Source of the DNA: Bacillota bacterium
GTDB lineage: Bacteria; Bacillota_I; Bacilli_A; RFN20; CAG-826
Assembly: GCA_039799785.1 (NCBI GenBank)
Contig: JBDLRZ010000045.1
Coordinates: 1-58,200, forward strand
DNA: 58,200 nucleotides
Reading direction: 5' to 3'
Shown here in pieces: positions 10,455 through 57,783 of the stretch. The notes beneath the pieces were generated by a model. The model searched no databases, was not told where the DNA came from, and saw only the letters and a program-made list of their open reading frames with translations. Numbering within the stretch: position 1 is the stretch's first letter; each line of letters opens with the position of its first letter. Position numbers and translations under genes: made by a program.

Positions 10455-10455
10455 G

Positions 10456-11058
10456 TTATTCTCCTTTGATTTTCGTTCGTCCGGTCAATGCTTTAGATAG
10501 GGTTAAGGCGTCTGCATAATCCACATGACCACCCATCGGTAAACCATATCCGATACGGGTAATATTTAAACCTTCTTTTTTCAACATGTTAGCGAGAAAT
10601 TGGGCAGTTGTTTCACCTTCTAAGGTTGGATTGGTTGCAATAATCACTTCTTGATAGGGATGTTTCTTCAGTTCTTTTTGTAAAGCATCGATGCGAAGGT
10701 CTTGAACGCCCATGCCTTTACTCGCAGATAAAACGCCACCAAGAACTTGATAACGAAAAATAGGAGATTCAAGTTTTTCAAATGCTGCGACATCTTTTGA
10801 GTAACTGACAACCACCAACGTTTGATAAGGTCTCGTTGAGGTACAGATTTCACAATTAGGATCTTCTGTAAGAACACCACAAGTTTGGCAAGGATGAACT
10901 AAATGTTTGACTGCACCTAAGCTTTCTTGAAATTGTAGGACATCTTCTTCGCTAAATTCTAAAATAGCTTGGGCCATGCGTTCAGCAGACTTACTACCAA
11001 CGCCTGGTAACTTTTCAAAAGATTCAATTAAGGCTTGTAAACTTTTTAAAGGTTTCAT
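10456..11058 (-). CDS. recR: Recombination protein RecR
   Basis: Has LPGVGSKSAERMA (HhH), a C4 zinc finger CQTCGVLTEDPNCEIC and a Toprim domain. The ATG at 11058 overlaps the dnaX stop (ATGA), so the ORF-track start at 11070 is unlikely. Confidence 0.95.
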   Translation of the reverse strand: MKPLKSLQALIESFEKLPGVGSKSAERMAQAILEFSEEDVLQFQESLGAVKHLVHPCQTCGVLTEDPNCEICTSTRPYQTLVVVSYSKDVAAFEKLESPIFRYQVLGGVLSASKGMGVQDLRIDALQKELKKHPYQEVIIATNPTLEGETTAQFLANMLKKEGLNITRIGYGLPMGGHVDYADALTLSKALTGRTKIKGE

Positions 11059-12662
11059 TTGAAGGTCCAATTTTTAACAGTGGGTGGTGTGTCTTGTTTG
11101 GAAGGTAATTTATTTAATTGCGCTAAATCCATAAATAACTTTTTAAGTTTGACTGCTTCTTGGCGATTAATTGCATACACTACACCTTCATAACCAGCAA
11201 TGTTTTGCATCACTTTTTGTATCAAGGGTTGATTGGCTACTAAGTTTAATTGAGATGCAATTGTAGCCTGATCAACTTCCAAAGCTAAAATGTGTTTGCT
11301 TAAGACATAAGGTCTTGCATCTTTTAATAGCGCAGCAATCGAAGCGAATTGTGGTTGAAAAAGCATACTATCTAATTGTTTCCAGGATTGTAAAATATCC
11401 TGTCTAGCATCTTTATCACCCATTACCATCACTTTAATCATATTCACATCATCGATATAAAGGCCTTCACCCGTTTCTGCAATCGCGACTGGAGGTGTAT
11501 TTGCGATTGGTTTTGGCGTTGGATTTGCAGTGCTTTCAACTTTGCCTTTCATCACATCAAAAATATTCGGTGGCGTTTTAGTTTTGTTTTCAGGTGTTTG
11601 TAATTGTAAAAGTTTGAGTTGTAATAAACCTGGAATTGCAGATGGGTTTCGAACATCTGTTTGAATGGTCATGATCGCTTCCGTTACAATTGGAATCCAG
11701 GTCAAGGATAAATCTTCTAAAATACGATTTGCTTCAGCTTCCCTTAACATCGACATTAATGAAGGTTCTTGTGTTTTAACAAGGATTAACAAATCCTTCA
11801 ACATTACCAGAAGATCCATTAATAAGCGCTTTAAATCAGCTCCTTTTTGAACAAAGGAATCAATTTTGCCAATCATCGTGGATTGGTCTTGTCGCCCAAT
11901 TGCAGTGAGTAATTCAATTTTATCTTCAAGACTCACTAACCCAAATAGATTTAAAATATCTTTTTCTTCAAAACGACCACCGGTATAAGCGATGACTTGA
12001 TCAAGTAACGATAAAGCATCTCGTACCCCGCCATCTGCTAATTGGATGACAGCTTGGACTGCTTTTTCATCATAAGGAATCTTTTCTGTTTTCAGAATAA
12101 ATTGAATCCGTTCTTTAATATCAGTTGCGTTCACCTTACCAAAATCAAATCGTTGGCAACGACTTAAGATGGTAGGAATAATTTTATGTGGTTCTGTAGT
12201 AGCAAGAATAAACAAAACATGGGAAGGTGGTTCTTCTAAGGTTTTAAGCAATGCATTAAATGCACCTGCTGTCATCATATGAACTTCGTCAATAATATAA
12301 ATTTTATATTTTCCCTTAATGGGGGCATATTTAACTTTATCAATCAGATCGCGAACTTCATCAACACCGTTGTTACTTGCAGCGTCAATTTCAATGACAT
12401 CTGGATGGCGATTTTCTTGAAGTGCCTTACAATTTTCACATTGACCACATGGTTCACTTTGAGACACTTCACAATTTAATGCCTTGGCAAAGATTTTGGC
12501 TAAGGACGTCTTCCCAGTGCCTCGAGGTCCGGAGAATAAATAAGCATGAGAAAGCTTTTGATTGATTAAAGCGTTTTGTAAGGTTCTTACAATGGCTTGT
12601 TGACCTGCAACTTGTGCAAATTGTTGTGGTCGATAGGTTCGATAAAGTGCCTTGTATGCCAT
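11055..12662 (-). CDS. dnaX: DNA polymerase III subunit gamma/tau
   Basis: YRPQQFAQVAGQ, SHAYLFSGPRGTGKTS, zinc module CGQCENC, IIDEVHM, LKTLEEPP, ILSRCQRF. Confidence 0.95.
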   Translation of the reverse strand: MAYKALYRTYRPQQFAQVAGQQAIVRTLQNALINQKLSHAYLFSGPRGTGKTSLAKIFAKALNCEVSQSEPCGQCENCKALQENRHPDVIEIDAASNNGVDEVRDLIDKVKYAPIKGKYKIYIIDEVHMMTAGAFNALLKTLEEPPSHVLFILATTEPHKIIPTILSRCQRFDFGKVNATDIKERIQFILKTEKIPYDEKAVQAVIQLADGGVRDALSLLDQVIAYTGGRFEEKDILNLFGLVSLEDKIELLTAIGRQDQSTMIGKIDSFVQKGADLKRLLMDLLVMLKDLLILVKTQEPSLMSMLREAEANRILEDLSLTWIPIVTEAIMTIQTDVRNPSAIPGLLQLKLLQLQTPENKTKTPPNIFDVMKGKVESTANPTPKPIANTPPVAIAETGEGLYIDDVNMIKVMVMGDKDARQDILQSWKQLDSMLFQPQFASIAALLKDARPYVLSKHILALEVDQATIASQLNLVANQPLIQKVMQNIAGYEGVVYAINRQEAVKLKKLFMDLAQLNKLPSKQDTPPTVKNWTFK

Positions 12663-12774: not shown

Positions 12775-13839
12775 ATGGAAGAAAATTTAAGAAATCGCCT
12801 CAAAGTGATGCGTGATCGTTTAACGACGATTGATGATTTACTCGTTCAAGAATCTGTCCTTGGTGATTCTCGTCAATTTAAGTCACTTTCCAAGGAAAGA
12901 GCGACCCTTGATAAAGTGGTAACCCTTTTTAACACATTTGAAACCAATGAAAAGAATTTAGCTGATGCATTAATCATGCGAAATGATGCTGACTCCGAGA
13001 TTGCCCAATTAGGAAAAGCTGAAGTTGAACAATTGACAGAGGCACAAAGTAAATTAATGGAAACGATTAAATTTCATCTTATTCCAAAAGATCCTAATGA
13101 TGATAAAAATATTGTTGTGGAAATTCGTGGTGCGGCTGGTGGAGATGAAGCGTTCATTTTTGCAAGTGACTTATTTAGAATGTATACCAAATATTGTGAA
13201 AAAAATGGTTGGAAAATCCAAATGCTTTCCGACGCGGGTGGTCAATCGACCATTACCTTCATGGTCAAGGGCGATGCGGTTTACTCCAAACTTAAATTTG
13301 AATCTGGTGCGCACCGTGTTCAACGCGTTCCGGCAACGGAGGCTTCTGGAAGAATTCACACCTCAACGGCTACCGTACTCGTCATGCCTGAAGTGGAAGA
13401 AGTTGATATCGTCATTAATACAAACGACCTTCAAGTAGATACATATCGTTCGCAAGGCGCAGGTGGTCAAAACGTCAATAAGACTGAATCCGCTGTTCGT
13501 ATTACCCATTTACCGACAGGAATTGTCGTTTCATGCCAAATTGAAAAATCACAAATTCAAAACCGTGAACTTGCGATGAAGATGCTTTATGCAAAGTTAG
13601 AAGCGCACAAGCAAGCTGAAATTGATGAAAAAGTCGGTAATGAAAGAAAATTAAAAGTCGGAACCGGTGAACGTAGTGAAAAAATTCGCACCTACAACTA
13701 TCCTCAAAATCGAGTCACGGATCATCGGATTGGTTTCACGATTAACCAGCTTGATCGAGTGATGGAAGGTCAAATTGAAGACATATTAGAAGCTTTAAAC
13801 CATTTTGACCAACAACAAAAACTTTTGGGTGGAGAATGA
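12775..13839 (+). CDS. prfA: Peptide chain release factor 1
   Basis: PAT tripeptide (RVPATE), GGQ motif (SQGAGGQNVNKTESAVRITH). Confidence 0.95.
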   Translation: MEENLRNRLKVMRDRLTTIDDLLVQESVLGDSRQFKSLSKERATLDKVVTLFNTFETNEKNLADALIMRNDADSEIAQLGKAEVEQLTEAQSKLMETIKFHLIPKDPNDDKNIVVEIRGAAGGDEAFIFASDLFRMYTKYCEKNGWKIQMLSDAGGQSTITFMVKGDAVYSKLKFESGAHRVQRVPATEASGRIHTSTATVLVMPEVEEVDIVINTNDLQVDTYRSQGAGGQNVNKTESAVRITHLPTGIVVSCQIEKSQIQNRELAMKMLYAKLEAHKQAEIDEKVGNERKLKVGTGERSEKIRTYNYPQNRVTDHRIGFTINQLDRVMEGQIEDILEALNHFDQQQKLLGGE

Positions 13840-19342: not shown

Positions 19343-20456
19343 ATGATTGATTTAAGTGTCTTAAAGTCGGAGTTAAATGACTTAGCTGTTCTTATCCAGC
19401 AAGTCAGTGAATCTCTTTGACCTGGTTCAATTAAAAACACAAATTCAGGCTGATGAAACTTTAATGGATGGTCCTCATTTTTGGGATCACCAACGCCAAG
19501 CTAAAGCAGTCATTCAACGGATGAATGAAAAGAAATTTTTTGTTGAATCATTAGAAAAGCTACTCCAAAGTTATCAAGCATTACTCGATTTACTTCCTTT
19601 CTTGGAATCCGATCAATCCTTAATGTCGAGCTTTCAAACTGAGCTCCGAGGGCTCCAAAAATTAGGTAAGCAAGTTCAAGAATTGGTTCTATTCTCTGGT
19701 GAATTTGACGGGCTCAATGCCATTGTCGAAATTCATCCTGGTGCAGGTGGTACTGAAAGCCATGATTGGGCGAATATGTTGTATCGGATGTATGTGCGAT
19801 ATGCTGAAGCGAACAAATTTCAAGTCCAAATGTTAGATTATTTGGCTGGAGAGGAAGCTGGCATTAAGAGTGTGACGATGATGATTAAAGGTACACGAGC
19901 CTATGGTTTATTAAAATCAGAAAAAGGTGTTCATCGGTTGGTAAGAATTTCACCATTCGATGCGAATGACCGCCGCCATACATCCTTTGCATCCGTGAAC
20001 GTCATTCCGGATATCGTGGATGAAGTGGATGTAGAAATTCTAGATAAAGACCTTCGTATTGATACCTATCGATCAGGTGGTGCTGGTGGTCAAAACGTTA
20101 ACAAAGTTGAAAGTGCAGTCCGGATTACCCACATTCCAACGGGTCTCGTCGCTTCTTGCCAAATTGAACGCAGTCAATTACAGAACAAAGAAAAAGCGAT
20201 GCAAATGTTGAAAGCTCAAGTCTATCAATTAAAGAAACAGCAACAAGAGGCGCATCTTGATTCGATTGTTGGCGAACAAAAAGATATTGAATGGGGCAGT
20301 CAAATCCGTTCATATGTCTTCCAACCATACATGTTGATTAAAGATCATCGAACCGATTATCAAGAAGGCGATGTCACCAAAGTGATGGATGGCGCAATTG
20401 ATGGATTCATCCGATCCTATCTTGAAATGGAGGCCAAGAAGCATGCAAAAAAATAA
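19343..20456 (+). CDS. prfB: Peptide chain release factor 2 (requires programmed +1 frameshift)
   Basis: Frame 0 reads MIDLSVLKSELNDLAVLIQQVSESL and hits TGA at 19418-19420. After the +1 shift it continues DLVQLKTQIQ... with the SPF motif (RISPFD) and GGQ (SGGAGGQNVNKVESAVRITH). Confidence 0.9.
19415..19421 (+). promoter_or_regulatory. prfB +1 programmed ribosomal frameshift site CTT TGA C
   Basis: The exact canonical heptamer CTTTGAC sits at the junction of the 25-codon frame-0 ORF and the main RF2 frame. Confidence 0.85.
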
Positions 20457-37419: not shown

Positions 37420-37950
37420 ATGAAACAACATAATTATTTAATCGTCGTGGATGTTCAAAAGGATTTTGTCGATGGGGTGTTAGGTACACCAGAAGCGGTC
37501 GCCATGATTCCTTATTTAGTCAATAAAATTAAAGGTTTTAAAGGTGAAATTATCTTTACCCAAGATACGCATGATCAGGGTTATTTATCGACCATAGAAG
37601 GTAAAAAATTACCCGTTATGCATTGTGTTAAAAACACGCCAGGATGGAATTTTGATGCCGCCATCTCACCTTATACAAAAGGTAAAAAAGTCTTCCAAAA
37701 ACCTACATTTGGTTCTGAAAAGTTGGTCAATTACATCAAGAAGCAACACCAAATTTCACCTATTCATTCGCTAGAAGTGGTGGGGATTTGTACGGATATT
37801 TGTGTCATTTCGAACGTAATGATGTTAAAGGCCGCTTTGCCCAATGTAAACATTAAAGTGGATGCAAAAGCTTGTGCTGGTGTCACACCACTTAGTCACA
37901 CGCGGGCTTTAGAATCCATGGCCTCAGTTCATATCGATATACAAAAATAA
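37420..37950 (+). CDS. Isochorismatase-family cysteine hydrolase (nicotinamidase PncA-like)
   Basis: LIVVDVQKDFVDG (catalytic Asp), FQKPTFG (Lys region), VVGICTDICV (catalytic Cys). Confidence 0.75.
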   Translation: MKQHNYLIVVDVQKDFVDGVLGTPEAVAMIPYLVNKIKGFKGEIIFTQDTHDQGYLSTIEGKKLPVMHCVKNTPGWNFDAAISPYTKGKKVFQKPTFGSEKLVNYIKKQHQISPIHSLEVVGICTDICVISNVMMLKAALPNVNIKVDAKACAGVTPLSHTRALESMASVHIDIQK

Positions 37951-37977
37951 AAACCTCCATATTATATGGAGGTTTTT
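37951..37977. terminator. Rho-independent terminator (bidirectional) between the pncA-like gene and tRNA-Ala
   Basis: AAACCTCCATA, loop tta, TATGGAGGTTT, then TT. Confidence 0.75.
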
Positions 37978-41279: not shown

Positions 41280-41331
41280 TTCGCGTAGGGAAAAATTGTT
41301 CACTCTTAATCATCATGAAAGGAAATTATTG

Positions 41332-43911
41332 ATGAAACATTATTGGAAAGGTCTCACCATTACATTAGCAGCACTTGTGCTTGCAGCGTGTGGTACACCA
41401 AGTTCAAGTAGCCAAACGAGTTCAGCATCTACACTAACGTCGATTACCATCACGGGTGCAAATGATATCTCAATCGAATTTGACGCTGATTTTAATTTCT
41501 TAACCGGCGTTACTGCTACTGGTAATACAGGCGCAGATTATACGTCTAGTATTACGCTTTCCTCGATTTCAACCGCGGTTAATACGACCACAGGTGAATT
41601 AGACACGACTAGAACCGGTGTTCACACGGTGCAATATCGCGTTCAATCTGGAACCATTGTTGCTACAAAATTTAGAAACGTAACGGTACAACAACCAGAA
41701 TCAACTGGTGGCATGTTACTCAATCCAGATTTTGCTTTAGGCACCGCTGGATGGACTGATCCAAGTGTTGTCTATAACGAAAGTGGATCAAGTATTGAAT
41801 TTGATACTGAAGATGGCGCATTAAAAGTTGTGGTCGTCACAAGTCCTGTTGCCTATGCACCTCGATTTGGACAAATGAATGTCCCATTTGAAATCGATAC
41901 AACTTATGAAGTTAGCTTTAGAGCGAAATCAAGTGCTGCTAAACCTATTAATTTAAACGCTGGTGAATTGTTAACCTCCGCTCCTTGGTTCACGGATTTC
42001 AAACCTGGTCAACCAGAAGTAAGAACCATCGGAACTGAATGGGCAACGTATTCGTTTATCTTCACCCATCGTTTAGACAATCAACGTGGTGGTATTTTAT
42101 TTGAATTAGGTACGGTCAGTGGTCAAAGTGTCAATGCAACGATGTATTTTGATGACATCACGATTGAAGAAGCGACCGCCGGTCCAGATGTGACTGCTCC
42201 AAACTTCTCTGGTGTTACTAGTACAATCAGTGTCTTAGTTGGATCAACGTATGATCCATTAAATGGTGTCACCGCATTAGACATTGTTGATGGTGATTTA
42301 ACGGATTCAATTTTAGTAGAAATCCTTGATAGCAATAACGCGACTGTTAATACCGTGGACACGAGCGCTCCTGGTGTTTACACGGTCAATTATTCTGTTG
42401 AAGACGCAGCTGGAAATGAAGCGACTGCTCAAACCACCGTCAACGTGGTCAGTTTAGCTTTCAGAAATGAAAACTTATTAGCGAATGGTTCGTTCGCTGA
42501 TGCTTTAGGCGCTGAATGGGGTTATTGGCAACAAGATTGGGGCACTGCTCCAGTTGTAAATCGTACCCAAGATACCGCTGCTGGAACCTATAGTTTAGAT
42601 ATTACAGGTGGCGGCGATGCTGTCTGGGCAATTCAATTCTTCCAAGATGGGGTTGAACTCGTCGAAGGAACAACGTATCGTTTATCCGTTACTGCCGCTG
42701 CTTCCGTTGCACGTAAAATAAGCGTTGGCATTGGAAATGGCAATCCATGGAATGAATATGCCCGTAAGAACGGTCTTGAAATTGGAACCACATCATCAAC
42801 ACAAGACTTTGTCTTTACTGTTACCAAAGCAACTGCAGATGTAAAGGTTGTTTTAGAATTAGGCAGTCAAGATGGTTTTGCTAATGGTGCGTTAACACTT
42901 TCAGAAGTTCGTTTACAACGTCTTGATGCTGCACCTTTACTCAGTGATTCAAAATTCGCCATGACTGGTTGGAGACATTTCGTTAACGATTGGGATGGCA
43001 CAGTTGCCACTTCCGGTATTGTTGCGGGTGAATATAAAATGTCAATTACGAAAACCGTTGGTTTAAATCCAACTGCAGATAATTGGAAATTACAAATTAT
43101 CCAAGATAACGTTGCATTTGGTGAAACGGTTGATAATGGCCGCATGAATTTAACGGTTGGAAAATCCTATACGTTAAGTTTTGATATGTATGCTTCCCAA
43201 GCCATCAGTGTCACGACCTTTATTGGTGCTCCTGGTGTCTGGGTCAACTATGTTCCAGAAGTGAATCGTACCAATTCAGTTACCACAAGTAAGCAAACCA
43301 TTACGATTCCAGTGAGTACGGTTGGTGCAACCTTAAATGGTAATGAAAAATTATCGTTTGAATTTGGATCTTCCTTTACAAACTTTGAATCTGGTAATGA
43401 ATTTGTGGCGATTGACAATGTTGTTTTAAAAGAAGGTAATACCGTTTTACCTAATGTCATCAACGGTGATATGAATGCAATTTTAGGTGGTCATACATTC
43501 TTCACAGAAAATGGTGGAGCGATGACACGTGGTACCAATGGCGGAGCTTCCATCGAGGTTCCTGCATTAGGTGGTGCTGCTTATCAACCTCACTATTACT
43601 ATGTGTTCCCAACGCTTGCCAAAGGAAACTATGAAGTGAAGATTGCGTTAACAAGTTCAGTTACCCGTGATTTACGCTTCAATATTATTCTCCCAGATGC
43701 AGGTTATGCTTCGATCTTACCTGACAACTTTGTTGATTTTAGAGTAACTGCAGATTCACCTTATGTCTTTACCGTTTCCTTTGAAGTGGTCAATCCATTA
43801 ACCAATGTGAAGCTTGAATTAGACTTAGGTAACCTCGGTGGTGATAAAATCTCTTTACCAGGTACATTCTTAATCTCAGAAGTACTCGTCTACGCCAACT
43901 ACAATAGCTAA
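41332..43911 (+). CDS. Surface lipoprotein with two Ig-like (DUF5011-type) and four CBM4/9-like carbohydrate-binding modules
   Basis: Lipobox LVLAAC-G after MKHYWKGLTITLAA. A DUF5011-like segment is VGSTYDPLNGVTALDIVDGDLTD...GVYTVNYSVEDAAGNEA. There are four repeats of the pattern N[GP]xF...W...(beta-sandwich)...DD/DN[IV]x[IL]. No catalytic motif was seen. Confidence 0.6.
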   Translation: MKHYWKGLTITLAALVLAACGTPSSSSQTSSASTLTSITITGANDISIEFDADFNFLTGVTATGNTGADYTSSITLSSISTAVNTTTGELDTTRTGVHTVQYRVQSGTIVATKFRNVTVQQPESTGGMLLNPDFALGTAGWTDPSVVYNESGSSIEFDTEDGALKVVVVTSPVAYAPRFGQMNVPFEIDTTYEVSFRAKSSAAKPINLNAGELLTSAPWFTDFKPGQPEVRTIGTEWATYSFIFTHRLDNQRGGILFELGTVSGQSVNATMYFDDITIEEATAGPDVTAPNFSGVTSTISVLVGSTYDPLNGVTALDIVDGDLTDSILVEILDSNNATVNTVDTSAPGVYTVNYSVEDAAGNEATAQTTVNVVSLAFRNENLLANGSFADALGAEWGYWQQDWGTAPVVNRTQDTAAGTYSLDITGGGDAVWAIQFFQDGVELVEGTTYRLSVTAAASVARKISVGIGNGNPWNEYARKNGLEIGTTSSTQDFVFTVTKATADVKVVLELGSQDGFANGALTLSEVRLQRLDAAPLLSDSKFAMTGWRHFVNDWDGTVATSGIVAGEYKMSITKTVGLNPTADNWKLQIIQDNVAFGETVDNGRMNLTVGKSYTLSFDMYASQAISVTTFIGAPGVWVNYVPEVNRTNSVTTSKQTITIPVSTVGATLNGNEKLSFEFGSSFTNFESGNEFVAIDNVVLKEGNTVLPNVINGDMNAILGGHTFFTENGGAMTRGTNGGASIEVPALGGAAYQPHYYYVFPTLAKGNYEVKIALTSSVTRDLRFNIILPDAGYASILPDNFVDFRVTADSPYVFTVSFEVVNPLTNVKLELDLGNLGGDKISLPGTFLISEVLVYANYNS

Positions 43912-48400: not shown

Positions 48401-48463
48401 TTAAAACCATATCCGGTTCCCACGATTGACAATATTGATTGGTGGTTAACCCAACATGCTTAA
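45437..48463 (+). CDS. Giant (1008 aa) membrane-anchored solute-binding protein: N-terminal TM anchor, CBM-like beta-sandwich modules and a C-terminal SBP domain
   Basis: TM helix [18 protein letters not shown]. The N-terminal half carries galactose-binding-like signatures ([12 protein letters not shown]...[10 protein letters not shown]). The C-terminal half is SBP-like ([11 protein letters not shown]...[11 protein letters not shown]...[16 protein letters not shown]...TWDDV). Confidence 0.6.
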
Positions 48464-49352
48464 TCGATTATTGGACAGAATGAATCGTCCGGCATGGTTT
48501 GTATTTCCATATTGGTTTTTATTTGCAGTGTTTATCGTTGTCCCAGTGGTCGCTGCCATTGGTTTATCTTTTACGTTCTTTAATTCCATTCAAGCTCCAA
48601 CCTTCGTTGGCATCAACAACTATATTGAATTGATCACCTTAGATACGGTGTTTATGCGTTATGTATTACCGAATACCTTACGATTTGCCTTTATCGTGGG
48701 GCCAGTCGGTTATGCCTTATCATTTATGGTGGCTTGGATGCTTTCACACTTACCTAAAAGACCTCGTACCATCCTTGCAATTATTTTTTATTCACCATCT
48801 TTAACGGCAGGTGTCGCCATGGCAGCCATGTGGCGTATTATTTTCTCTGGTGACGCCCAAGGTTATTTAAATGCCATCATGTTAGATTTAGGTTTAATCG
48901 TTGAACCTATTCAATTTTTACAAAATCCAGACATGCTGATGACCATTATGATTGTAGTGTCACTTTGGAGTTCGATTGGTGTTGGTTTCTTAGCGATGCT
49001 TGCAGGTATTCTGAATGTAGATCGAACCCTGTATGAAGCTGCCTACATCGATGGCATTAAAAATTGGTTTCAAGAAATTATTTATGTCACGATACCTGCG
49101 ATGAAGCCGCAAATGATTTTTGGTGCGGTTATGGCGGTTGTTGGAACGTTCCAAGCTGGAGCGATTGGTGTGGCATTATCCGGTACCAATCCTACGCCTA
49201 ATTATGCCGGTCAATTGATTGTGAATCACATTGAAGACTTTGGGTTCATTCGTTACATGATGGGTTATGCGGCAAGTATTTCAGTCATTTTATTATTAAT
49301 GGTGTATGCCATTTCTAAAGTGACCTGGAAGTTTTTAGGAGAAAAAGACTAA
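48456..49352 (+). CDS. Carbohydrate ABC transporter permease (MalF/CUT1 type)
   Basis: 6 TM helices, EAA loop [26 protein letters not shown]. Confidence 0.9.
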
Positions 49353-50230
49353 TGGCCTCAAAATTTTTAGGAACTCAAATTAACCCAGATCGTTTCCATA
49401 AAGGACAACTTCCTTTTTTCATTATTTTAATTTCATTTTCAGTTTTGATGATTTTACCGATCTTATTCATCGTGAATCACGCGTTTAAACCACAGTCTGA
49501 GTTATTTGCTTATCCACCTGCGTTCTTTGTTAAAAATCCAACGCTTGATAACTTTGTTGAATTAGCAAGATTAGTTTCCACTTCAGGGGTCCCATTTTCT
49601 CGCTATGTTTTAAATAGTGTCTTCATTACCGGTATCGGTGTTGGTTTAGCCATTCTATTTACAGCGTTATCCGCTTATGGCTTAGCGAAGTTACATTTTA
49701 GAGGGAAGAAATTGTTATTTGAAATCAACACGATTTCCTTGATGTTTGTGCCGATTGCAGTTCAAATTCCACGTTATATCGTGGTGGCCCAATCCGGGAT
49801 GATTGATACATACTTTGCTCATATTTTCCCGTTAATTACGATGCCGGTTGCGATGTTTTTAATTAAACAATTTATTGATCAAATCCCGAATGACTTTATT
49901 GAAGCTGCACGGATTGATGGCGCGAGTGAAATGCAAATTTTCTTTAAAGTGATTATGCCGATGATTGCCCCAGCGGTTGCCACCGTTGGCATTCTTGCTT
50001 TCCAATTAATTTGGAATGATACGTCAACTTCAACCTTATTTATCAATGATGAAAGTTTACGAACGCTGGCCTTCTTTTTACAAACCTTAACATCGGGTGT
50101 TGGCAATACCGTTGCCGGTCAAGGGATGGCTGCGGCTGCCTCTTTACTCATGTTTATTCCAAACCTAGTCTTATTCGTAATTTTACAAAGTCAGGTGATG
50201 TCGACCATGGCACACTCGGGGTTAAAGTAA
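49352..50230 (+). CDS. Carbohydrate ABC transporter permease (MalG/CUT1 type)
   Basis: 6 TM helices, EAA loop IEAARIDGASEMQIFFKVIMPMIAP. Confidence 0.9.
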   Translation: MASKFLGTQINPDRFHKGQLPFFIILISFSVLMILPILFIVNHAFKPQSELFAYPPAFFVKNPTLDNFVELARLVSTSGVPFSRYVLNSVFITGIGVGLAILFTALSAYGLAKLHFRGKKLLFEINTISLMFVPIAVQIPRYIVVAQSGMIDTYFAHIFPLITMPVAMFLIKQFIDQIPNDFIEAARIDGASEMQIFFKVIMPMIAPAVATVGILAFQLIWNDTSTSTLFINDESLRTLAFFLQTLTSGVGNTVAGQGMAAAASLLMFIPNLVLFVILQSQVMSTMAHSGLK

Positions 50231-50231
50231 C

Positions 50232-52274
50232 ATGAAACGTTGGCTTTACCTTTTCATCTTTGCAAACTTAGGGTTAATGATGCCTCAACGAACGGTGTTG
50301 CCTACCCTTGCAGATAATGGTTTACCTTATCAGACATACACCTATGCGAGTTCACGACAACAACTGATTCAAACCCAAGACGCTTATTTACCATTATCCT
50401 TAACAACCCAACTTGGTGCATTTACCTTATCGTCACCACAAGATGTTTATGTGGATGCACAAGACACCATTTATGTTGCCGATAAAGGACGAAAATCCAT
50501 CATCAAATATAATTTACAAAATGATGAGGCGATTGAAATTGGATTTGGAATTTTAAATGAGCCTACCGGTGTCCATGTCGATGAATCAGGTTCGATTTAT
50601 GTTGCGGATTTTGCCAATAAAAAAGCGTATCAATTTGTGAATGATGAAGGCGAATATGTCATTCAAGCTGAATATGAAAAACCACTTAACTCACCATTCT
50701 TTGGTGAAGATGATCCCTTTGATCCAACTAAGGTTGTCACCGATCGAGGTGGCAACGTTTATGTGTTATTGGCAGGTAACGTCAATGGTCTAGCTCAATT
50801 TAAAAATAATGGTGAATTCTTTGGTTATTTTGGTGGTAATCGCATTCCTGCAACTTTAGAAAATACCGTTCGTTCTTTATTGTTTGATGAAGAAACGCGA
50901 CGTAATTTTTTCCAAATTATTCCCAAACCAGTCTATAACGTGAGTATTGATCAAAGTGGTTTGATTTTAACATCCACCAAGGATCAAGACGGTTATTTAA
51001 AACTCAATATTGCGAACGTGATCTACAACCAATCCGTATGGGGTTTTGATACGGTTGAAGATATTGCAGTCGGTCCATACAACACCATTTATACGTTAAC
51101 GTCTGAAGGATACATCGTAGAATATGATCCCAATGGTTCGGTTTTATTTTTATTCTCAGGTCCCGATGCAATAGGGCAAAAAGGTTTATTTAAACGCGCA
51201 AAAGGGATTGCCATTGATTCTCGAAATAACTTATATGCAGTGGATGAAGCAACCGGTGCACTTCAAATCTTTATTCCTACTGATTTTGCAGACTTAGTCC
51301 ATGAAGCGATTGATTTATATTTTGATGGAAAATATGCAGAGTCCTTAGTGCCTTGGCAAAATGTTTTAAAAATGAATCGTCTCTTTGATTTGGCTAACCA
51401 AGGTCTTGGTGATGCTTATTATGCGCTTCAAGACTATGAATCAGCATTAACTTATTATCGATTAGCGAGAGATACACGTGGTTATTCCAACGCTTACTGG
51501 GAAGTTAGAAATCAATTCTTATTGGCAAACGGCAATACATTTGTCATTTTCCTCATCATCGTTGCGGTCTTTTATGCGTTAAGAAAATTTGTTCCTGGTT
51601 ATGTTTGGTTACAAACCCAAGTGACAAACTTCAAGCAAAAAACAAACCTACCAGCTTGGTTAAAGGAATTACGGTTTCCGCTTCAAGTCTTTGCCAAACC
51701 GGTTGATGGGTATGATGATATTAAACGTCACAAAACCTTCTCTAATCGAAGTGCATTCTTATATTTAATTGCTTTCTTTGTCACGTATCTCATTTGGATT
51801 TATGAAACGAATTTCTTATTTAATGGTTTGATCTCCTCTGAAATCAACATCATTGAACAAGTCATTGGCGTTTTTGTTCCATTTGGTTTATGGGTCATTA
51901 GTAATTACTTGGTCTGTTCTATTCGCGATGGTGATGGCAAATTAAGTGAAGTCTTCCAAGCTTCTGCACTCACGTTGTTGCCAATGATTATCACCTTCCC
52001 AATCTTAACGGTGATTTCCCATGCGTTAACCGCGAATGAAAGTTTCATCTATGAACTTATTTATGGGATTGGCGTGACTTTTACCGTCATCTATATGTTT
52101 ATCATGGTGAAAGAAATTCATTTCTACGATATTAAACCTACCTTCAAAAACATTCTGATCACGATTTTTACGGCAATTATGTTACTTGCCTTAACCTTGA
52201 TTATTGTCTTCTTACTTGGAGAAGTTTATCAACTGATTGCCGATATCATACAGGAGGTGAATAGCCGTGTTTAA
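50232..52274 (+). CDS. Signal peptide, NHL-repeat beta-propeller, TPR-like segment and C-terminal Yip1-type 5-TM domain protein
   Basis: NHL-like repeats are IYVADKGRKSIIKYN, IYVADFANKKAYQF, NVYVLLAGNVNGLAQF and LYAVDEATGALQIF. The TPR-like segment is GLGDAYYALQDYESALTYYRLA. The C-terminal polytopic region is reminiscent of the bacterial YIP1 family. Confidence 0.55.
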   Translation: MKRWLYLFIFANLGLMMPQRTVLPTLADNGLPYQTYTYASSRQQLIQTQDAYLPLSLTTQLGAFTLSSPQDVYVDAQDTIYVADKGRKSIIKYNLQNDEAIEIGFGILNEPTGVHVDESGSIYVADFANKKAYQFVNDEGEYVIQAEYEKPLNSPFFGEDDPFDPTKVVTDRGGNVYVLLAGNVNGLAQFKNNGEFFGYFGGNRIPATLENTVRSLLFDEETRRNFFQIIPKPVYNVSIDQSGLILTSTKDQDGYLKLNIANVIYNQSVWGFDTVEDIAVGPYNTIYTLTSEGYIVEYDPNGSVLFLFSGPDAIGQKGLFKRAKGIAIDSRNNLYAVDEATGALQIFIPTDFADLVHEAIDLYFDGKYAESLVPWQNVLKMNRLFDLANQGLGDAYYALQDYESALTYYRLARDTRGYSNAYWEVRNQFLLANGNTFVIFLIIVAVFYALRKFVPGYVWLQTQVTNFKQKTNLPAWLKELRFPLQVFAKPVDGYDDIKRHKTFSNRSAFLYLIAFFVTYLIWIYETNFLFNGLISSEINIIEQVIGVFVPFGLWVISNYLVCSIRDGDGKLSEVFQASALTLLPMIITFPILTVISHALTANESFIYELIYGIGVTFTVIYMFIMVKEIHFYDIKPTFKNILITIFTAIMLLALTLIIVFLLGEVYQLIADIIQEVNSRV

Positions 52275-54633
52275 ACTATCACGATTCATCATCCCGATGA
52301 TCTTATTGCCTGTATTGATTGTCACCACACAAGAAGATCCTACTTTGATGGTGGCCCCTCGTGTCGATAATTTTGCCTTTATTGAAAATCAGTTATTGAG
52401 TAGTTCAAGATATACGCAAGTCGATGAACAAAATGAATCCGTGTTAAATCGATTTGAAGAAGATTTTAATTTGCAATATACCAACGAACAACTCGACTTA
52501 CTTGGTTACGAATTGATGCTTGAAAATAATCAATTAAATTTATATTTTGAAAAAGACTCTTTTTCACTCATTCTTGAAGATAAAACAACCGGTTATATGT
52601 TGTCGTCACGACCAGAATTCCAAGGTTATTCAGAAACTAGAGAAGATAATACCGCAAACCGAAACCTAATGAATTCAGGCTTATGGATTGAATCGATACG
52701 CACCAACAACATTAGTAGCAGCGCGATTAAAGTTGAATCTCTCTATACGATCGCCGATGCCAGTTACCAAACGAATGGTTCTCAAGATTTAGCGAACATT
52801 GATTGGACAAAGCCTTATTTGCTAGAAACAAATAGTTATCAAAGAAACCGTGTTCAAGTCACCACTTCCAATGTGAATGCATCGAGTTTTACGACTACCA
52901 TCAATGTCACCAATTATGGTTTTGAATTTGATATCAATATTATTTTGCAATCGAATGGTTTTTCTGTGCAATTTGACCCAACCACCGTGCAAGAAACGAA
53001 TGACCAGTACCGATTATTAGGTTTACAATTTTTCCCATACTTTGGCTCTGCTCGTGAAGATGTTTATCCTGGTTATGTGGTCATCCCTGATGGTGTTGGT
53101 GCCTTGGTGAGAACTAATCAAAGATTCGATAAAACATATCAATCCGATTATTTCGGTTCCGATTTAGGTTATCTTAGAACCTCGATAGCCGATTTATCCT
53201 TACCGATCTATGGCATGATTCATCAAGTCGATCGCATTGGTTTTTACCATGAAATTGTCGAAGGTGCAGAACATGCAACGTTACTCGCCAATTTTTGGGG
53301 AAGAAATACACGCTACCACCGTATTACCAATCGTTATAACGTTCGCAGAATTTTTAGAAACATTATTAACCGCGCTGGAGATGGTCAAGATGTTTTACCT
53401 GAAGAAATGGTGATGCAACCCTATGAAGGAACGTATCAATTATTAAAGAATGATCAAGCAAGTTATGTTGGTATTGCCCAATCTTATCAAGCAAATTTAG
53501 AAGCAAGACAATCTATCCGTTCTCTTGAACCCACACAAACACCGATGCAAGTCGCCATGATTATTCATGAACAAGAACCCACTTTCTTTGGTACTTCAAG
53601 ATTAACCATGACGTCCATGGATGATGTTCAAACCATTCGCGACCGATTAATGGAAGACGGCATCGAAGAACAAGTCCTTGTCCTTAAGGGTTGGTCTGAT
53701 GACGGCTTAGCGTATCGACAACCGTATTACTTTAATTTACCTGATCGCCAAGGTTTAATCGATGTCATGGAAGATGTGAATGCTGATGGTCAACATGTAT
53801 ATCTAGAACAAGATTATTTAGTGAGTAGTGAATTATCCTCACGTGTTCAATTTAATCGTGATGTCGCAAGAAACTATTCTAAACTTAAAATGAGTTACCG
53901 GCTTAATCGTCTCGATAACCAACCGATTAATGAATATTATTTATATCCTTCGATCGCGGAACAAAAATTAGCGAATGATCTTGATGCAATCCAAGATTTA
54001 GGTGCAACTGGTTTTGCCTTCCCATCTTTAGGCAATACGTTATATAGTTATTACGATGATGATCGCTTTAATCGAACGGAAACGCTTAACACCGTGACTT
54101 CGATGGCGGCCTCCTTATCTGCGAATGCTATGCAACGACCTTCCGCATATATGTTTCCACATCTCAATCATTATCTCGATATGCCGATCACCAATAGTCA
54201 GCTTGATTTATTTACGGATTTAGTCCCACTCGTACCCTATGTTTTAAAAGGATATATTCCGACCTTTACGCCTTATTTAAACTTTAATGCTTTAGGAAAA
54301 GAACGATTACTTCAAATGATTGATTTTGCGGTCAATCCAAGTTATTTATTAACCGAAAAACCAAGTAGCGAATTACGTTACACCTATAGTAATAAATATT
54401 TCACAACGGCGTATGAAGATTTCCAAGATGACATTCGCGATGTTTATGCTTACATTGCCAGTGCATTAGATCATATTTTAGGTGCGAAGGTTTTGAATCG
54501 TTCCATCATCCAAACGGGCGTTAGTCGTGTTGAATACGATAATGGTGTGACTTTATACATCAATTACCGTTCTACACCTGTGACGGTTGATGAAATCACG
54601 ATAAGTGCCTTGGATTATGAGGTGGTGTTATGA
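52267..54633 (+). CDS. DUF5696-like extracytoplasmic protein of unknown function (788 aa)
   Basis: GTG start after AGGAGG, with an N-terminal signal/anchor FIIPMILLPVLIV. It has no motifs I recognise, and VLVLKGWSDDGL...HVYLEQDY suggests a TIM-barrel-like glycosidase fold. The family name comes from my memory of similar gene neighbourhoods. Confidence 0.45.
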   Translation: MFKLSRFIIPMILLPVLIVTTQEDPTLMVAPRVDNFAFIENQLLSSSRYTQVDEQNESVLNRFEEDFNLQYTNEQLDLLGYELMLENNQLNLYFEKDSFSLILEDKTTGYMLSSRPEFQGYSETREDNTANRNLMNSGLWIESIRTNNISSSAIKVESLYTIADASYQTNGSQDLANIDWTKPYLLETNSYQRNRVQVTTSNVNASSFTTTINVTNYGFEFDINIILQSNGFSVQFDPTTVQETNDQYRLLGLQFFPYFGSAREDVYPGYVVIPDGVGALVRTNQRFDKTYQSDYFGSDLGYLRTSIADLSLPIYGMIHQVDRIGFYHEIVEGAEHATLLANFWGRNTRYHRITNRYNVRRIFRNIINRAGDGQDVLPEEMVMQPYEGTYQLLKNDQASYVGIAQSYQANLEARQSIRSLEPTQTPMQVAMIIHEQEPTFFGTSRLTMTSMDDVQTIRDRLMEDGIEEQVLVLKGWSDDGLAYRQPYYFNLPDRQGLIDVMEDVNADGQHVYLEQDYLVSSELSSRVQFNRDVARNYSKLKMSYRLNRLDNQPINEYYLYPSIAEQKLANDLDAIQDLGATGFAFPSLGNTLYSYYDDDRFNRTETLNTVTSMAASLSANAMQRPSAYMFPHLNHYLDMPITNSQLDLFTDLVPLVPYVLKGYIPTFTPYLNFNALGKERLLQMIDFAVNPSYLLTEKPSSELRYTYSNKYFTTAYEDFQDDIRDVYAYIASALDHILGAKVLNRSIIQTGVSRVEYDNGVTLYINYRSTPVTVDEITISALDYEVVL

Positions 54634-55697
54634 AGAAAAAACTCACATCACTTTTAAAAAATATCTGGCAATCCATTCGCCATTTTTTTACAAGGTTAAA
54701 TAACGCATATCAACGCCATATCCAACCATTCTTGGATCGCTTCTTTTACCGTTTAAGACACAATGTGATCTATCGAGAAATAGGAAACACGGTAAAGCTT
54801 TTTTCTTTCATCACCATACGGATTACCAGAAAACGTCGACATGCTTTTTACGGTTACCTGTTTATCCTTATATGGCTGATTGGCATCTCTATTTTTACAT
54901 TGTATCCATTAGGTTATTCATTCTATTTAAGTTTCCATGAAGCGTACTATAACCTTCAAGAAGGGGTTGTCACCACGTTTATTGGCTTTACCAATTATTT
55001 AAATATTTTCCGTAGTCAGACGCTTGTTCCTGCATATTCCAATTACCTTGGTCGCATGGTTGTAGCTGTGCCCATCATTATTGTTTTCTCCATCATTATT
55101 GCAGTCCTCGTGAACATGCCAATCAAAACAAAAAGTTTATGGCGAACCATTTTCTTCCTTCCGGTGATCATTTCTACGGGTCCCGTTATCAATGAACTCA
55201 ATGCTCAAAGTGCAATTACCCTACCGAATTTACAAGCCAGTGGCATCTATAGTTATATCGTCAATAACTTACCAGGATTTCTTGCCGATCCTTTAACAAC
55301 GGTCATCAATTCGATGTTGTTGATTCTTTGGTATGCAGGGATTCCGATTTTAATTTATTTAGCCGGATTACAAAAAATCGATCCTAGTTTATATGAGGCT
55401 GCCAGCATGGATGGTGCTTCACCTTGGATGCGATTCTGGAAAATTACCTTACCTTCTTTGATGCCGTTTACTGGCATTTCGATTGTGTATGTGGTGGTCT
55501 CGATGTCTTTATTTGTTGAACCAGGTGGCATTTTAGATTTAACGAGAACCCATATGTTAGTCGGTGCGCCTGATTCTGCCTTTTGGTTTGGATATGGTTA
55601 TGCAGCAGCAATGGCATGGGTTTATTTTTTATGCATGGTCATCTTAATTGTGGTTTTCACCAGTATTACTAGAGAAAAGAGAGGAAAACTAAAATGA
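54630..55697 (+). CDS. Carbohydrate ABC transporter permease (MalF type) with an N-terminal basic extension of about 65 aa
   Basis: EAA loop YEAASMDGASPWMRFWKITLPSLMP. The start overlaps the upstream stop as ATGA. Confidence 0.85.
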   Translation: MKKKLTSLLKNIWQSIRHFFTRLNNAYQRHIQPFLDRFFYRLRHNVIYREIGNTVKLFSFITIRITRKRRHAFYGYLFILIWLIGISIFTLYPLGYSFYLSFHEAYYNLQEGVVTTFIGFTNYLNIFRSQTLVPAYSNYLGRMVVAVPIIIVFSIIIAVLVNMPIKTKSLWRTIFFLPVIISTGPVINELNAQSAITLPNLQASGIYSYIVNNLPGFLADPLTTVINSMLLILWYAGIPILIYLAGLQKIDPSLYEAASMDGASPWMRFWKITLPSLMPFTGISIVYVVVSMSLFVEPGGILDLTRTHMLVGAPDSAFWFGYGYAAAMAWVYFLCMVILIVVFTSITREKRGKLK

Positions 55698-56632
55698 AAA
55701 TTTCCTCAATCTTAAGTGTGACCAATCAACAAAAATTAAAAAAAGTTTGGTTCGGTAAAACGTTAACCGATGGACTTTTATATAAATTTGTCATTTATCT
55801 TTTGTTAATCAGCTTTAGTTATATCTACTTATATCCTTTGTTGTTTATGTTGATCAATAGTTTGAAATCCGTTGATGATCTCATTAATCCAGGTGTGCAA
55901 TGGATTCCCACGGTCCTCATGTGGGAAAACTATGAGCGCGCATTCCAAGTGTTGAGTTTGCCCCAATCCTTCATTGATTCCACTGTCTATGTTTTAAAAG
56001 TGAGTGTCAGTGCAACCTTATCCAGTGCGTTGATTGGATATGGCTTTGCACGTTTTGATTTCCCATTTAAACGTTTATTCTTTGCGATCATGCTTGCGAC
56101 CTTTATTCTGCCTCAACAAGTGACGATGGTCGCAAACATGCTGATCTTCAGAGAACTTGAAATCATCTCAACGGAATGGTCGATGCTGTTACCTGCGATG
56201 ACTGGACAAGGGATTAATGCTGCCATTTATATACTTATTTTTTATACCTTCTACCGAACTATTCCTGGTATCTTAATTGAATCCGCTGAAGTCGATGGCG
56301 CAGGTCAATTGAGAATTTTCCGCACGATCATCCTACCGTTAGCGATTCCTTCTTTTGTAATTGTGTTCTTATTTAGTTTTGTTTGGTATTGGAATGAATC
56401 ATTCATCACTGGTTTATATGTAGGCGATAAGGTGACATTACCTCTATGGTTACAGGCATTCCGTTCTTCCTATGAAACGATTTTCCCACCTGGTACACCT
56501 GGTGCAGAATTAAATGAAGCGATCTTATTATCAGGGAATATGCTGACGATATTACCTTTATTGCTTCTCTATTTCTTTGGTCAAAAGTTATTTACCCAAA
56601 GTATTGATAAAACAGGGATTACGGGAGAATAA
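55694..56632 (+). CDS. Carbohydrate ABC transporter permease (MalG type)
   Basis: EAA loop IESAEVDGAGQLRIFRTIILPLAIP, with an ATGA overlap with the upstream gene. Confidence 0.9.
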   Translation: MKISSILSVTNQQKLKKVWFGKTLTDGLLYKFVIYLLLISFSYIYLYPLLFMLINSLKSVDDLINPGVQWIPTVLMWENYERAFQVLSLPQSFIDSTVYVLKVSVSATLSSALIGYGFARFDFPFKRLFFAIMLATFILPQQVTMVANMLIFRELEIISTEWSMLLPAMTGQGINAAIYILIFYTFYRTIPGILIESAEVDGAGQLRIFRTIILPLAIPSFVIVFLFSFVWYWNESFITGLYVGDKVTLPLWLQAFRSSYETIFPPGTPGAELNEAILLSGNMLTILPLLLLYFFGQKLFTQSIDKTGITGE

Positions 56633-57783
56633 TGATGAAAAAAATTTGGCCAATCACGTTCTTAGCCTTTATCGTCACATCTTGCGTGAATCCAAGCGTG
56701 AGTTCATCTTCCTCAGGTGTTCCGAATGGTTTATTGCCCTTAACGCCAGTAGAAGGATGTGGCGTTCAAACAATTGATAATCAATGGGTTTGTACTTGGA
56801 CGGATGAATTTAACGGAAACACACTCAATAGCGAACACTGGAATGTCGAAGTCAACGGCGATGGCGGTGGCAACCAAGAAGCCCAATATTATCGGAATGA
56901 AAACATTTCGGTGAGTGATTGAACGTTAAAAATTACTGGTAAAAAAGAAAATTACTTAGGCAAACAATATACCAGTGGTCGAATCAATTCTCGTTATAAA
57001 GTGAACCCTCAATTTGGTCGTGTGACCTTTAGGGCTAAAATGCCAGCGGGAAGAGGAACATGGGCTGCGGTGTGGATGCTACCGTTATTTAATCGCTTTG
57101 GTCAATGGCCTAATAGCGGTGAAATTGATATTTTAGAATATGTTGGTTATGATCCTGGTACTGTATTTTCTGCGACGCATACGACTAAATTTAACCACAA
57201 CAATAACAATAACCCCAGTGCATCAAGAGTATTAGTAGACCCAGAAAATCAATTCTATGAATATGAAATGATTTGGTTACCTGGAGAAATTCGAATGTTC
57301 GTAGAAGGTAATCCTTATGGAACGTATCGATATGTCCCGCAATTTAATCAAGATGTGACGTTTGATGATGTCTTTCCATTTCAAGAAGAATTTTATTTCA
57401 TTATCAATTTAGCCATTGGTGGAAGTTGGGGTGGTGTGCAAGGGATTGATCCACTTGCCTTTCCGACAGTCTTAGAAATAGACTATCTTCGTTTATATCA
57501 ATGGGATTATGCACTTCATGATCTTACATCTCCTGAAAAACCTGCAGCTCTCGCAACTTCACAATTGGATAACACCATTCATTGGAATCGTCCAACGGAT
57601 GATACATGGGTAAGTCACTACGCAATTTATTTAGATGGTGTTAAATACCGCGAAGCAAAAATCAATCAATATACCTTTGTAGGCTTAGAACAACGCGATT
57701 ATCAAGTGCAAGTGGAAGCGATTGATTTTGTCGGTCGAACCTCTCCTTTATCGGATGCCATTACCTTTACCTTTGGAGGTTAA
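56632..57783 (+). pseudogene. GH16 beta-1,3(-1,4)-glucanase lipoprotein with C-terminal FN3-like domain, interrupted by one in-frame TGA (56920-56922)
   Basis: Lipobox FIVTSC. GH16 signatures are WNVEVNGDGGGNQEAQYY, YTSGRINS and WAAVWMLP, with the catalytic GEIDILE at 57121-57138. The two ORF-track pieces (56632-56922 and 57001-57783) share a frame, and the stretch between them also reads through (TLKITGKKENYLGKQYTSGRINSRYK). Confidence 0.8.

Follow-up and report, generated by a model that had tools for sequence, protein, structure and literature searches.

What is a Yip1-type membrane domain, joined to an NHL beta-propeller, doing in the middle of a bacterial sugar-transporter operon? The question is raised by a 58,200-nucleotide stretch of the Bacillota contig JBDLRZ010000045.1 (assembly GCA_039799785.1), hereafter the window, in which a gene for a protein combining NHL, TPR and Yip1 domains (the target; Table 1) lies between a permease gene and a gene of the DUF5696 family. 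We show that the target belongs to a large family whose genes occupy a fixed position within a core of ATP-binding cassette (ABC) transporter genes, and that this core persists among changing carbohydrate-active enzymes (CAZymes). We tentatively propose, with a confidence that stops somewhat short of even, that the target is a substrate-independent, non-catalytic scaffold or assembly subunit of an ABC glycan importer with two translocons.

Gene neighborhoods carry the argument. Using conserved peptide patterns of an intermediate alignment, the motif GYSxAFWExRN among them, we retrieved genome loci encoding relatives of the target, of which at least 583 were confirmed in a set of species-representative genomes; in 80 of these, open reading frames (ORFs) were called and matched to the window proteins, and five other loci (L083-L088) were inspected as well. 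Wherever the flank sufficed, the DUF5696 gene lies directly downstream of the target relative (68 of 68 loci) and the second permease gene, permB, directly upstream (66 of 66), and the full core, made up of genes for a giant substrate-binding protein (SBP), permA, permB, the target, DUF5696, permC and permD, is retained in all 43 loci that could display it. Within the inspected sample the pair of target and DUF5696 genes was never seen outside the cassette. The coupling that the initial annotation had described, with the target gene abutting the permease stop codon and running into the DUF5696 gene, is present on both sides: a single nucleotide separates the permB stop codon (TAA, 50228-50230) from the target ATG, and the GTG start of the DUF5696 gene at 52267 lies within the target, giving an 8-nt overlap. 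Like junctions occur in most related loci, the overlap being 1 nt between permB and the target in 58/74, 8 nt between the target and DUF5696 in 46/71, and 4 nt between DUF5696 and permC in 50/66. From the giant SBP gene to the GH16 gene, the successive junctions in the window measure -8, -1, +1, -8, -4, -4 and -1 nt. More than 120 full-length orthologues of 677-680 residues share 53-93% identity with the target, and this full-length conservation, together with synteny across phyla-level distances, shows that the gene is neither a mobile element nor an ORF arisen by chance or through faulty assembly.

The surroundings of the core are, conversely, labile. Cassettes whose target relatives share only 29-33% identity with the window protein retain the same core in the company of other CAZymes: Melibiase/GH31, a GH36-type alpha-galactosidase, in L083; GH43 and alpha-L-arabinofuranosidase domains of the GH51 type in L084; and GH30 and GH106 in the Mahella cassette L088, which also carries a two-component regulator comprising a histidine kinase and an AraC-type response regulator. 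In these distant cassettes, a small SBP gene follows permD, such that the layout can be written as giant SBP with permAB, Yip1 protein with DUF5696, and permCD with small SBP. Hence, the core is constant across the Bacillota while the flanking CAZymes, and presumably with them the substrates, vary. The initial annotation had suggested an accessory component for glycan handling or a scaffold; the invariant synteny and the persistence of the core among unrelated CAZymes strengthen the idea of an accessory component or scaffold, whereas glycan handling by the propeller finds no direct support. A structural role is likelier than a substrate-specific one, precisely because the module stays constant while the substrates change.

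The initial annotation had read the target itself as a secreted NHL propeller, a TPR-like linker and a five-helix Yip1 domain. These domains were all recovered, with an amendment: an additional transmembrane (TM) helix and a linker of ~55 residues precede the Yip1 domain, and hydropathy and the AlphaFold2 (AF2) model together give six TM helices plus the signal or anchor sequence. Both NHL (PF01436) and Yip1 (PF04893) pass their Pfam gathering cutoffs, the former at 55 bits against 20 (E 5.6e-15, two stretches passing separately) and the latter at 30.9 bits against 28.6, over residues 485-656 and model positions 2-172 of 173. Single-sequence Pfam matches to TPR models all lie below cutoff, the best being TPR_16 with 20.4 against 32.7 bits; nevertheless, a family profile of 35 orthologues, when searched against the PDB, matched consensus or engineered TPR proteins over residues 360-418 (E 4.5e-20 to 1e-4), and two TPR motifs thus fit the evidence at the level of the family. 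The same profile matched the propeller to the PknD sensor (1rwi, E 4.8e-27) and to the Pizza proteins. The AF2 model of the target (pLDDT 76.6, pTM 0.64) arranges strands in six blades over residues 35-349, where pLDDT is mostly 80-96, with a helical insert at approximately residues 201-233. Around this propeller are predicted an N-terminal helix (2-15), four helices (351-412), the additional TM helix (422-453), short cytoplasmic helices (456-500) and the five Yip1 helices (505-525, 540-566, 571-598, 604-630 and 634-679). Foldseek searches with the propeller retrieved TRIM71, Pizza6, Thin and the PknD ectodomain 1rwl, with TM-scores on the target of 0.72-0.81. The topology was called from hydropathy and charge counts by positive-inside reasoning: the inside loops are basic, the outside loops are free of lysine and arginine, and the C-terminal tail is acidic. 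Given the signal sequence and this charge distribution, an extracellular location is predicted for the propeller and TPR motifs, in agreement with the extracytoplasmic propeller envisaged at the outset.

The fusion is not, as had been implied, peculiar to the window. At a threshold of E<=1e-3, an exhaustive search with the TPR-Yip1 half alone recovered 1,865 clusters (50% identity), of which 203 reach E<=1e-30; among the best 150 clusters, 128 have representatives of at least 639 residues with the match in the C-terminal half, mostly of ~640-850 residues. In 47 relatives at 23-46% identity, the Yip1 domain was detected in every case (best E 7.8e-24), NHL in 35 and TPR_2 in 23. Databases already carry this family under such names as 'YIP1 family protein', 'NHL repeat containing protein', 'TPR repeat protein' and 'YvrE', and the target sequence is therefore not in itself new. 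Carriers include, in the Acholeplasmatales, Haploplasma modicum ATCC 29102, Peloplasma aerotolerans and Mariniplasma, and also members of the Izemoplasmatales, as well as Paenibacillus thermotolerans, Paenibacillus profundus, Bacillus sp. FJAT-28004 and the clostridial Mahella australiensis; the closest relatives of the window locus are river and lake metagenome-assembled genomes labelled Bacillota or Bacilli, near the Acholeplasmatales. In distant members conservation is strongest in the juxtamembrane GYSxAFWExRN motif, loop 3 (I-R-D-G-E-G), loop 4 (LTxNE) and the TPR region; within the Yip1 bundle of the target, these loops are the cytoplasmic SIRDGxGK loop and the outer LTxNE loop. Y418, S419 and R426 of the juxtamembrane motif are invariant even among the relatives at 23-46% identity, and P490, D492, G493, K498, R499 and S504 of the linker are invariant among orthologues. 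The propeller keeps mainly structural NHL residues, without an obvious catalytic constellation. The longer family members were also searched for Rosetta-stone fusions joining DUF5696 or a permease to the Yip1 module; none was seen, and the added length consists of extensions at the N-terminus or of ectodomains without an assignment.

The operon around the target is, as first described, that of a sugar ABC transporter, with four BPD_transp_1 permeases and two SBPs encoded around the target in an eleven-gene same-strand block from the GH161 to the GH16 gene. MalF/MalG-like permease pairs and family-1 extracellular SBPs, the hallmarks of CUT1-type importers, are both present, and the cassette can be classed as a sugar ABC importer that depends on an SBP and carries additional conserved subunits. 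The GH161 phosphorylase, GH16 and CBM4_9 genes in the operon indicate that its predicted substrate is a beta-1,3-glucan, e.g. laminarin; no signal peptide was seen in the N-terminal sequence of the GH161 protein. In the giant SBP, the SBP fold is limited to residues ~600-890 and preceded by ~600 residues that match no assigned domain, with an N-terminal TM anchor and no lipobox; its orthologues carry SBP_bac_1 and SBP_bac_8, and an SBP of ~1000 residues occupies this position in all related cassettes. Neither an ABC ATPase (ABC_tran) nor a regulator gene was detected among the window ORFs scanned, and the operon holds no gene for a membrane-fusion protein. CUT1-type operons often share an ATPase encoded elsewhere, as is generally known and discussed in PMC6484121.

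The constant partner of the target, the DUF5696 protein, yielded no match in a PDB sequence search. Its AF2 model (pTM 0.75, pLDDT 68.8) places a (beta/alpha)8 barrel between two beta-sandwiches, the second of them C-terminal, and Foldseek matched it to the GH129 structure 5opq (E 1.8e-28, TM-score on target 0.66) and NagBb (5wzn), followed by GH101, GH36 and GH31. It is thus predicted to fold like the clan GH-D-type glycosidases (GH129, GH101, GH36, GH31). The bulk of the protein should lie outside, as its N-terminal TM anchor is preceded by positive residues. Across divergent cassettes no aspartate or glutamate is strictly invariant, and positions E243, D275, D651 and D686 are kept as one or the other; the modelled fold may be that of an active enzyme or of a pseudo-glycosidase.

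Taken together, these features are consistent with the following arrangement. The Yip1 bundle of the target would dock laterally on one or both of the MalFG-type permease pairs, in the manner reported for YknW with YknXYZ, while the TPR motifs and the propeller would hold the ectodomains of DUF5696, the giant SBP or both above the translocons. Ectodomains so positioned could couple capture or processing of an oligosaccharide at the surface to its import, and the conserved cytoplasmic loops could contact the permeases or a shared ATPase encoded elsewhere. TPR motifs and propellers are classical protein-interaction modules, and the most conserved regions of the target are those at which the membrane-proximal and cytoplasmic contacts would form.

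YknW itself is a small, Yip1-only protein, not known to carry an extracellular propeller, a TPR module or the extra TM helix. Contrary to the initial remark, which left bacterial Yip1-family proteins with virtually no function assigned, a statement in PMC4887032 that cites Yamada et al. 2012 gives YknW of B. subtilis and B. amyloliquefaciens as a Yip1-family accessory protein that modulates the assembly of the YknXYZ transporter. We found no other bacterial Yip1 protein to which a role has been assigned. Like the target, YknW is a Yip1-domain membrane protein encoded inside an ABC transporter operon, and its reported modulation of ABC transporter assembly makes the scaffold proposal plausible. 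The transporters differ in class: YknW goes with a MacB-type exporter, with its FtsX-type permease and membrane-fusion protein, whereas the target goes with BPD_transp_1 importer permeases of the MalF/MalG/UgpAE-like type and SBPs. Hence, the target is not an orthologue of YknW in the strict sense; it may nevertheless work like it.

Several points weigh against a scaffold. The YknW precedent is a MacB-type exporter and not a MalFG-type importer, and gene order and translational coupling show co-expression, not complex formation. The Yip1 assignment in the target is marginal, at 30.9 bits against the threshold of 28.6. In sequence comparisons the conserved residues of the propeller look structural, being typical of NHL motifs, and the weak SGL or lactonase-type propeller matches in 11/47 relatives make an enzymatic propeller conceivable. 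Finally, the metatranscriptome (RNA) runs listed contained none of the sampled words, and four of these runs, when compared with the operon, yielded fragments over the GH16 gene only and left the target uncovered.

An enzymatic or glycan-binding propeller is the likeliest of the rivals, yet we regard it as unlikely. It would make the propeller itself the glycan-handling element, be it a lectin-like receptor or a six-bladed enzyme of the lactonase/lyase kind (SGL, strictosidine-synthase-like, PAL or virginiamycin B lyase), and reduce Yip1 to a mere anchor. In its favor are the predicted extracellular position of the propeller and its place in a glycan-uptake operon; the weak Pfam SGL matches are joined by SSL_N in 3/47 relatives, PAL (3fvz) and virginiamycin B lyase (2z2o) appear further down the Foldseek ranking, and some orthologues bear the JGI name 'sugar lactone lactonase YvrE'. 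However, the window protein itself lacks an SGL (PF08450) match, structurally it comes closest to NHL propellers without enzymatic function (TRIM71, the PknD sensor and Pizza), and the module is unchanged across cassettes for chemically unrelated glycans. Moreover, if Yip1 were just an anchor, the TPR motifs and the conservation of the five-TM bundle and the cytoplasmic loops would be superfluous. The constancy of the module amid varying substrates speaks equally against ligand sensing, and we hold it quite unlikely that the target is a sensor or gate whose propeller detects the substrate or the state of the envelope and whose Yip1 bundle and cytoplasmic loops switch the permeases or the ATPase. 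What recommends this alternative is the strong conservation of cytoplasmic loop 3 and the linker motifs, and the likeness of the propeller, in sequence and structure, to the extracellular domain of PknD (1rwi, E 4.8e-27; 1rwl).

That likeness has its limits. The NHL domain of PknD has been proposed to act as a sensor. Like the six-bladed NHL propellers of M. tuberculosis PknD (1rwi/1rwl) and Pizza, which are among its best sequence and structure matches, the target has a six-bladed NHL propeller, and as in PknD it would lie outside the cytoplasmic membrane, tethered by a TM helix. However, in PknD the propeller is coupled to a cytoplasmic Ser/Thr kinase, whereas the target combines it with TPR motifs and a Yip1 bundle and has no signalling domain. 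With a kinase domain absent by Pfam, NCBIfam and AF2 alike, the target is not a PknD-type kinase; only ~55 residues and short loops face the cytoplasm, with no kinase, histidine kinase or GGDEF domain, and where a cassette does carry a regulator, as in Mahella, it is the separate two-component pair. Least probable, in our estimate, is that the NHL-Yip1 and DUF5696 proteins form an independent two-protein membrane module, for instance a surface glycosidase or transglycosylase with its partner, that accompanies the ABC genes without belonging to the transporter. Its two genes adjoin each other in every case, mostly with an overlap, and the predicted GH129/GH101/GH36-like fold of DUF5696, with D275, D651, D686 and E243 kept acidic across divergent cassettes, would suit an enzyme. 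Against this, DUF5696 lacks a strictly invariant acidic residue over the same range, and the pair, never encountered outside the cassette in the loci examined, always lies between the permease pairs and is coupled to permease genes on both sides, an odd placement for an independent module. Accordingly, the scaffold or assembly subunit is the reading that we retain, tentatively, over these alternatives.

Other known systems place the cassette further. Kuhaudomlarp et al. 2019 (PMC6484121) sketched beta-1,3-glucan GH161/GH94 clusters of Acholeplasma laidlawii with an SBP and two permeases. These, like other CUT1-type importers, share with the window MalF/MalG-like permeases, family-1 SBPs and the lack of an ATPase in the operon, and the A. 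laidlawii clusters further share a cytoplasmic phosphorylase and a surface GH16 enzyme for beta-1,3-glucan (PMC6484121). The described systems are presented as an SBP and two permeases, whereas this cassette has two permease pairs, a TM-anchored SBP of ~1000 residues, the NHL-TPR-Yip1 protein and DUF5696. The gene clusters described in PMC6484121 and in the Paenibacillus JDR-2 transcriptome paper (PMC4765114) come nearest, but term searches in both did not find the accessory genes (NHL-TPR-Yip1, DUF5696), and our literature searches returned no paper mentioning DUF5696/PF18952 or describing the cassette or its accessory proteins. The eukaryotic Yip1/YIPF proteins, which are Rab-interacting residents of the Golgi and endoplasmic reticulum, share with the target the PF04893 domain and five TM helices after a cytoplasmic N-terminal segment, the similarity being marginal (30.9 bits); however, bacteria lack a Rab system, and the N-terminus of the target is a large extracytoplasmic module attached via the additional TM helix.

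What should surprise the specialist is less the fusion than the rigid, phylum-wide core with interchangeable CAZymes. The usual scheme of glycan import by Gram-positive bacteria comprises a single SBP, two permeases and an ATPase that is shared; the cassette extends it by a further permease pair, an anchored SBP of ~1000 residues and two conserved membrane proteins, and it does so in hundreds of species, ranging from soil Paenibacillus to freshwater, marine and host-associated Acholeplasma-like bacteria. Should the target prove to be a structural subunit, bacterial Yip1 proteins would acquire a second role, and a general one, in the assembly of ABC transporters, DUF5696 would gain a context for functional study, and Yip1 and DUF5696 could serve as a marker pair for polysaccharide-utilisation loci in the Bacillota. 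A bolder proposal, which we consider somewhat unlikely, is that the fixed core represents a hitherto unrecognised kind of glycan-importing ABC supercomplex in the Bacillota, in which the Yip1 protein would bridge two translocons with a pseudo-glycosidase and the giant SBP positioned above them, as a functional counterpart of the Bacteroidota SusC/D machinery. If so, monoderm and wall-less bacteria could capture and thread long oligosaccharides with interchangeable substrate specificity. The existence of cultured carriers (Paenibacillus, Mahella, Haploplasma and Peloplasma) makes the question directly testable.

Table 1. Positions in the window of the target gene, the segments of its product and the other genes of the operon, with the basis of each assignment.
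Feature	Position	Strand	Basis and remarks
NHL-TPR-TM-Yip1 membrane protein gene (target), complete	50232..52274	+	ATG start, 680 residues plus stop; ORF list, translation
Signal peptide or N-terminal anchor, residues 1-28	50232..50315	+	MKR, 13-residue hydrophobic core, PQRTVLPTLA; AF2 helix 2-15, charge, hydropathy
Six-bladed NHL beta-propeller, residues 29-349	50316..51278	+	Pfam, PDB profile matches, AF2, Foldseek; predicted extracytoplasmic
Two TPR motifs (four helices), residues 350-414	51279..51473	+	Sub-threshold Pfam, family profile, AF2 helices 351-412
Juxtamembrane motif GYSxAFWExRN, residues 415-428	51474..51515	+	Most conserved segment of the family
Additional TM helix (outside to inside), residues 429-451	51516..51584	+	Kyte-Doolittle peak 2.33; AF2 helix 422-453
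Basic cytoplasmic linker, residues 452-507	51585..51752	+	10 K/R against 4 D/E; contains HPxDGYYxIKR motif
Five-TM Yip1 bundle, residues 508-662	51753..52217	+	Pfam, five hydropathy peaks, AF2 helices, conservation by region
GH161 beta-1,3-glucan phosphorylase, 1032 residues	38181..41279	+	PDB 9qqk E 3.4e-191, 9h8v ~1e-191; no Pfam match
Surface lipoprotein, CBM_4_9 and Ig-like domain	41296..43911	+	Pfam; lipobox
Small SBP, lipoprotein, 485 residues	43927..45384	+	PDB family-1 extracellular SBPs E 1.5e-22; lipobox VLAGC; kept in related loci
Giant SBP, TM-anchored, 1008 residues	45437..48463	+	PDB sugar SBPs, e.g. Lin1841 5ysb E 3.7e-11
permA, MalF/UgpA-like	48456-49352	+	Pfam BPD_transp_1, NCBIfam
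permB, MalG/UgpE-like	49352-50230	+	Pfam BPD_transp_1, NCBIfam UgpA/UgpE/MalG-like
DUF5696 protein, TM-anchored, 788 residues	52267..54633	+	Pfam PF18952 409.5 bits
permC	54630-55697	+	Pfam BPD_transp_1, NCBIfam, synteny
permD	55694-56632	+	Pfam BPD_transp_1, NCBIfam, synteny
GH16 lipoprotein gene	56632..57783	+	Pfam GH16; in-frame TGA 56920-56922

Some members of the family depart from the full-length form. Short TPR-Yip1 matches were considered as a sign that the propeller is dispensable, and this was set aside: in the one case examined, the NHL domain is a separate ORF directly upstream, reflecting either gene fission or a frameshift, and the remaining short matches may be fragments. In two independent metagenome contigs, L086 (6829-8916) and L087 (3273-5360), the propeller (286 residues) and the TPR-Yip1 part (344 residues) are encoded by separate, adjacent ORFs ~190 nt apart in the same cassette, perhaps through natural fission of the gene, perhaps through a frameshift common to both contigs. 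Orthologues of the target are also split in L055 (1265-3309; 246+385 residues), L082 (2722-4758; 536+131 residues) and L056 of Haploplasma modicum ATCC 29102 (9917-11974; 491+161 residues); possible causes are frameshifts, decay to pseudogenes and errors of sequencing, and the strain of L056 is a cultured type strain.

At the upstream end of the glucan operon, between it and an isochorismatase-family gene, lies a 13-bp perfect hairpin (AAAAACCTCCATA...TATGGAGGTTTTT) at 37949-37977 with T-runs on both strands, which is probably a bidirectional terminator marking the upstream boundary of the operon. At its downstream end, the ORF finder split the GH16 gene into ORFs of 96 and 260 residues on account of the in-frame TGA, which is codon 97; all 12 relatives examined have a glycine codon (GGN) there, and a freshwater metatranscriptome contig has G at 56920. 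The TGA is either a strain-specific nonsense mutation, making the gene a pseudogene, or an assembly error.

The window as a whole is of low GC content (~38%) and chromosomal, with housekeeping genes for SecA, UvrB, RF1, RF2, glutamine synthetase and glycine cleavage. The RF1 gene lies at 12775-13839, and the RF2 gene (prfB, 19344-20456) begins with an ATG at 19344 and contains an in-frame CTT TGA C at 19416-19422, the main ORF continuing in the +1 frame. This is the classic prfB site for programmed +1 frameshifting; together with the presence of RF1, it shows that the Acholeplasma-like host uses UGA as a stop codon, and a reading of TGA as tryptophan is excluded. Elsewhere in the window, a gene for a 1014-residue YfhO-family membrane protein (4124-7168) lies near one for a protein with Listeria-Bacteroides repeat domains (2316-3209); both genes are surface-related, and database labels put the lineage near the wall-less Acholeplasmatales.

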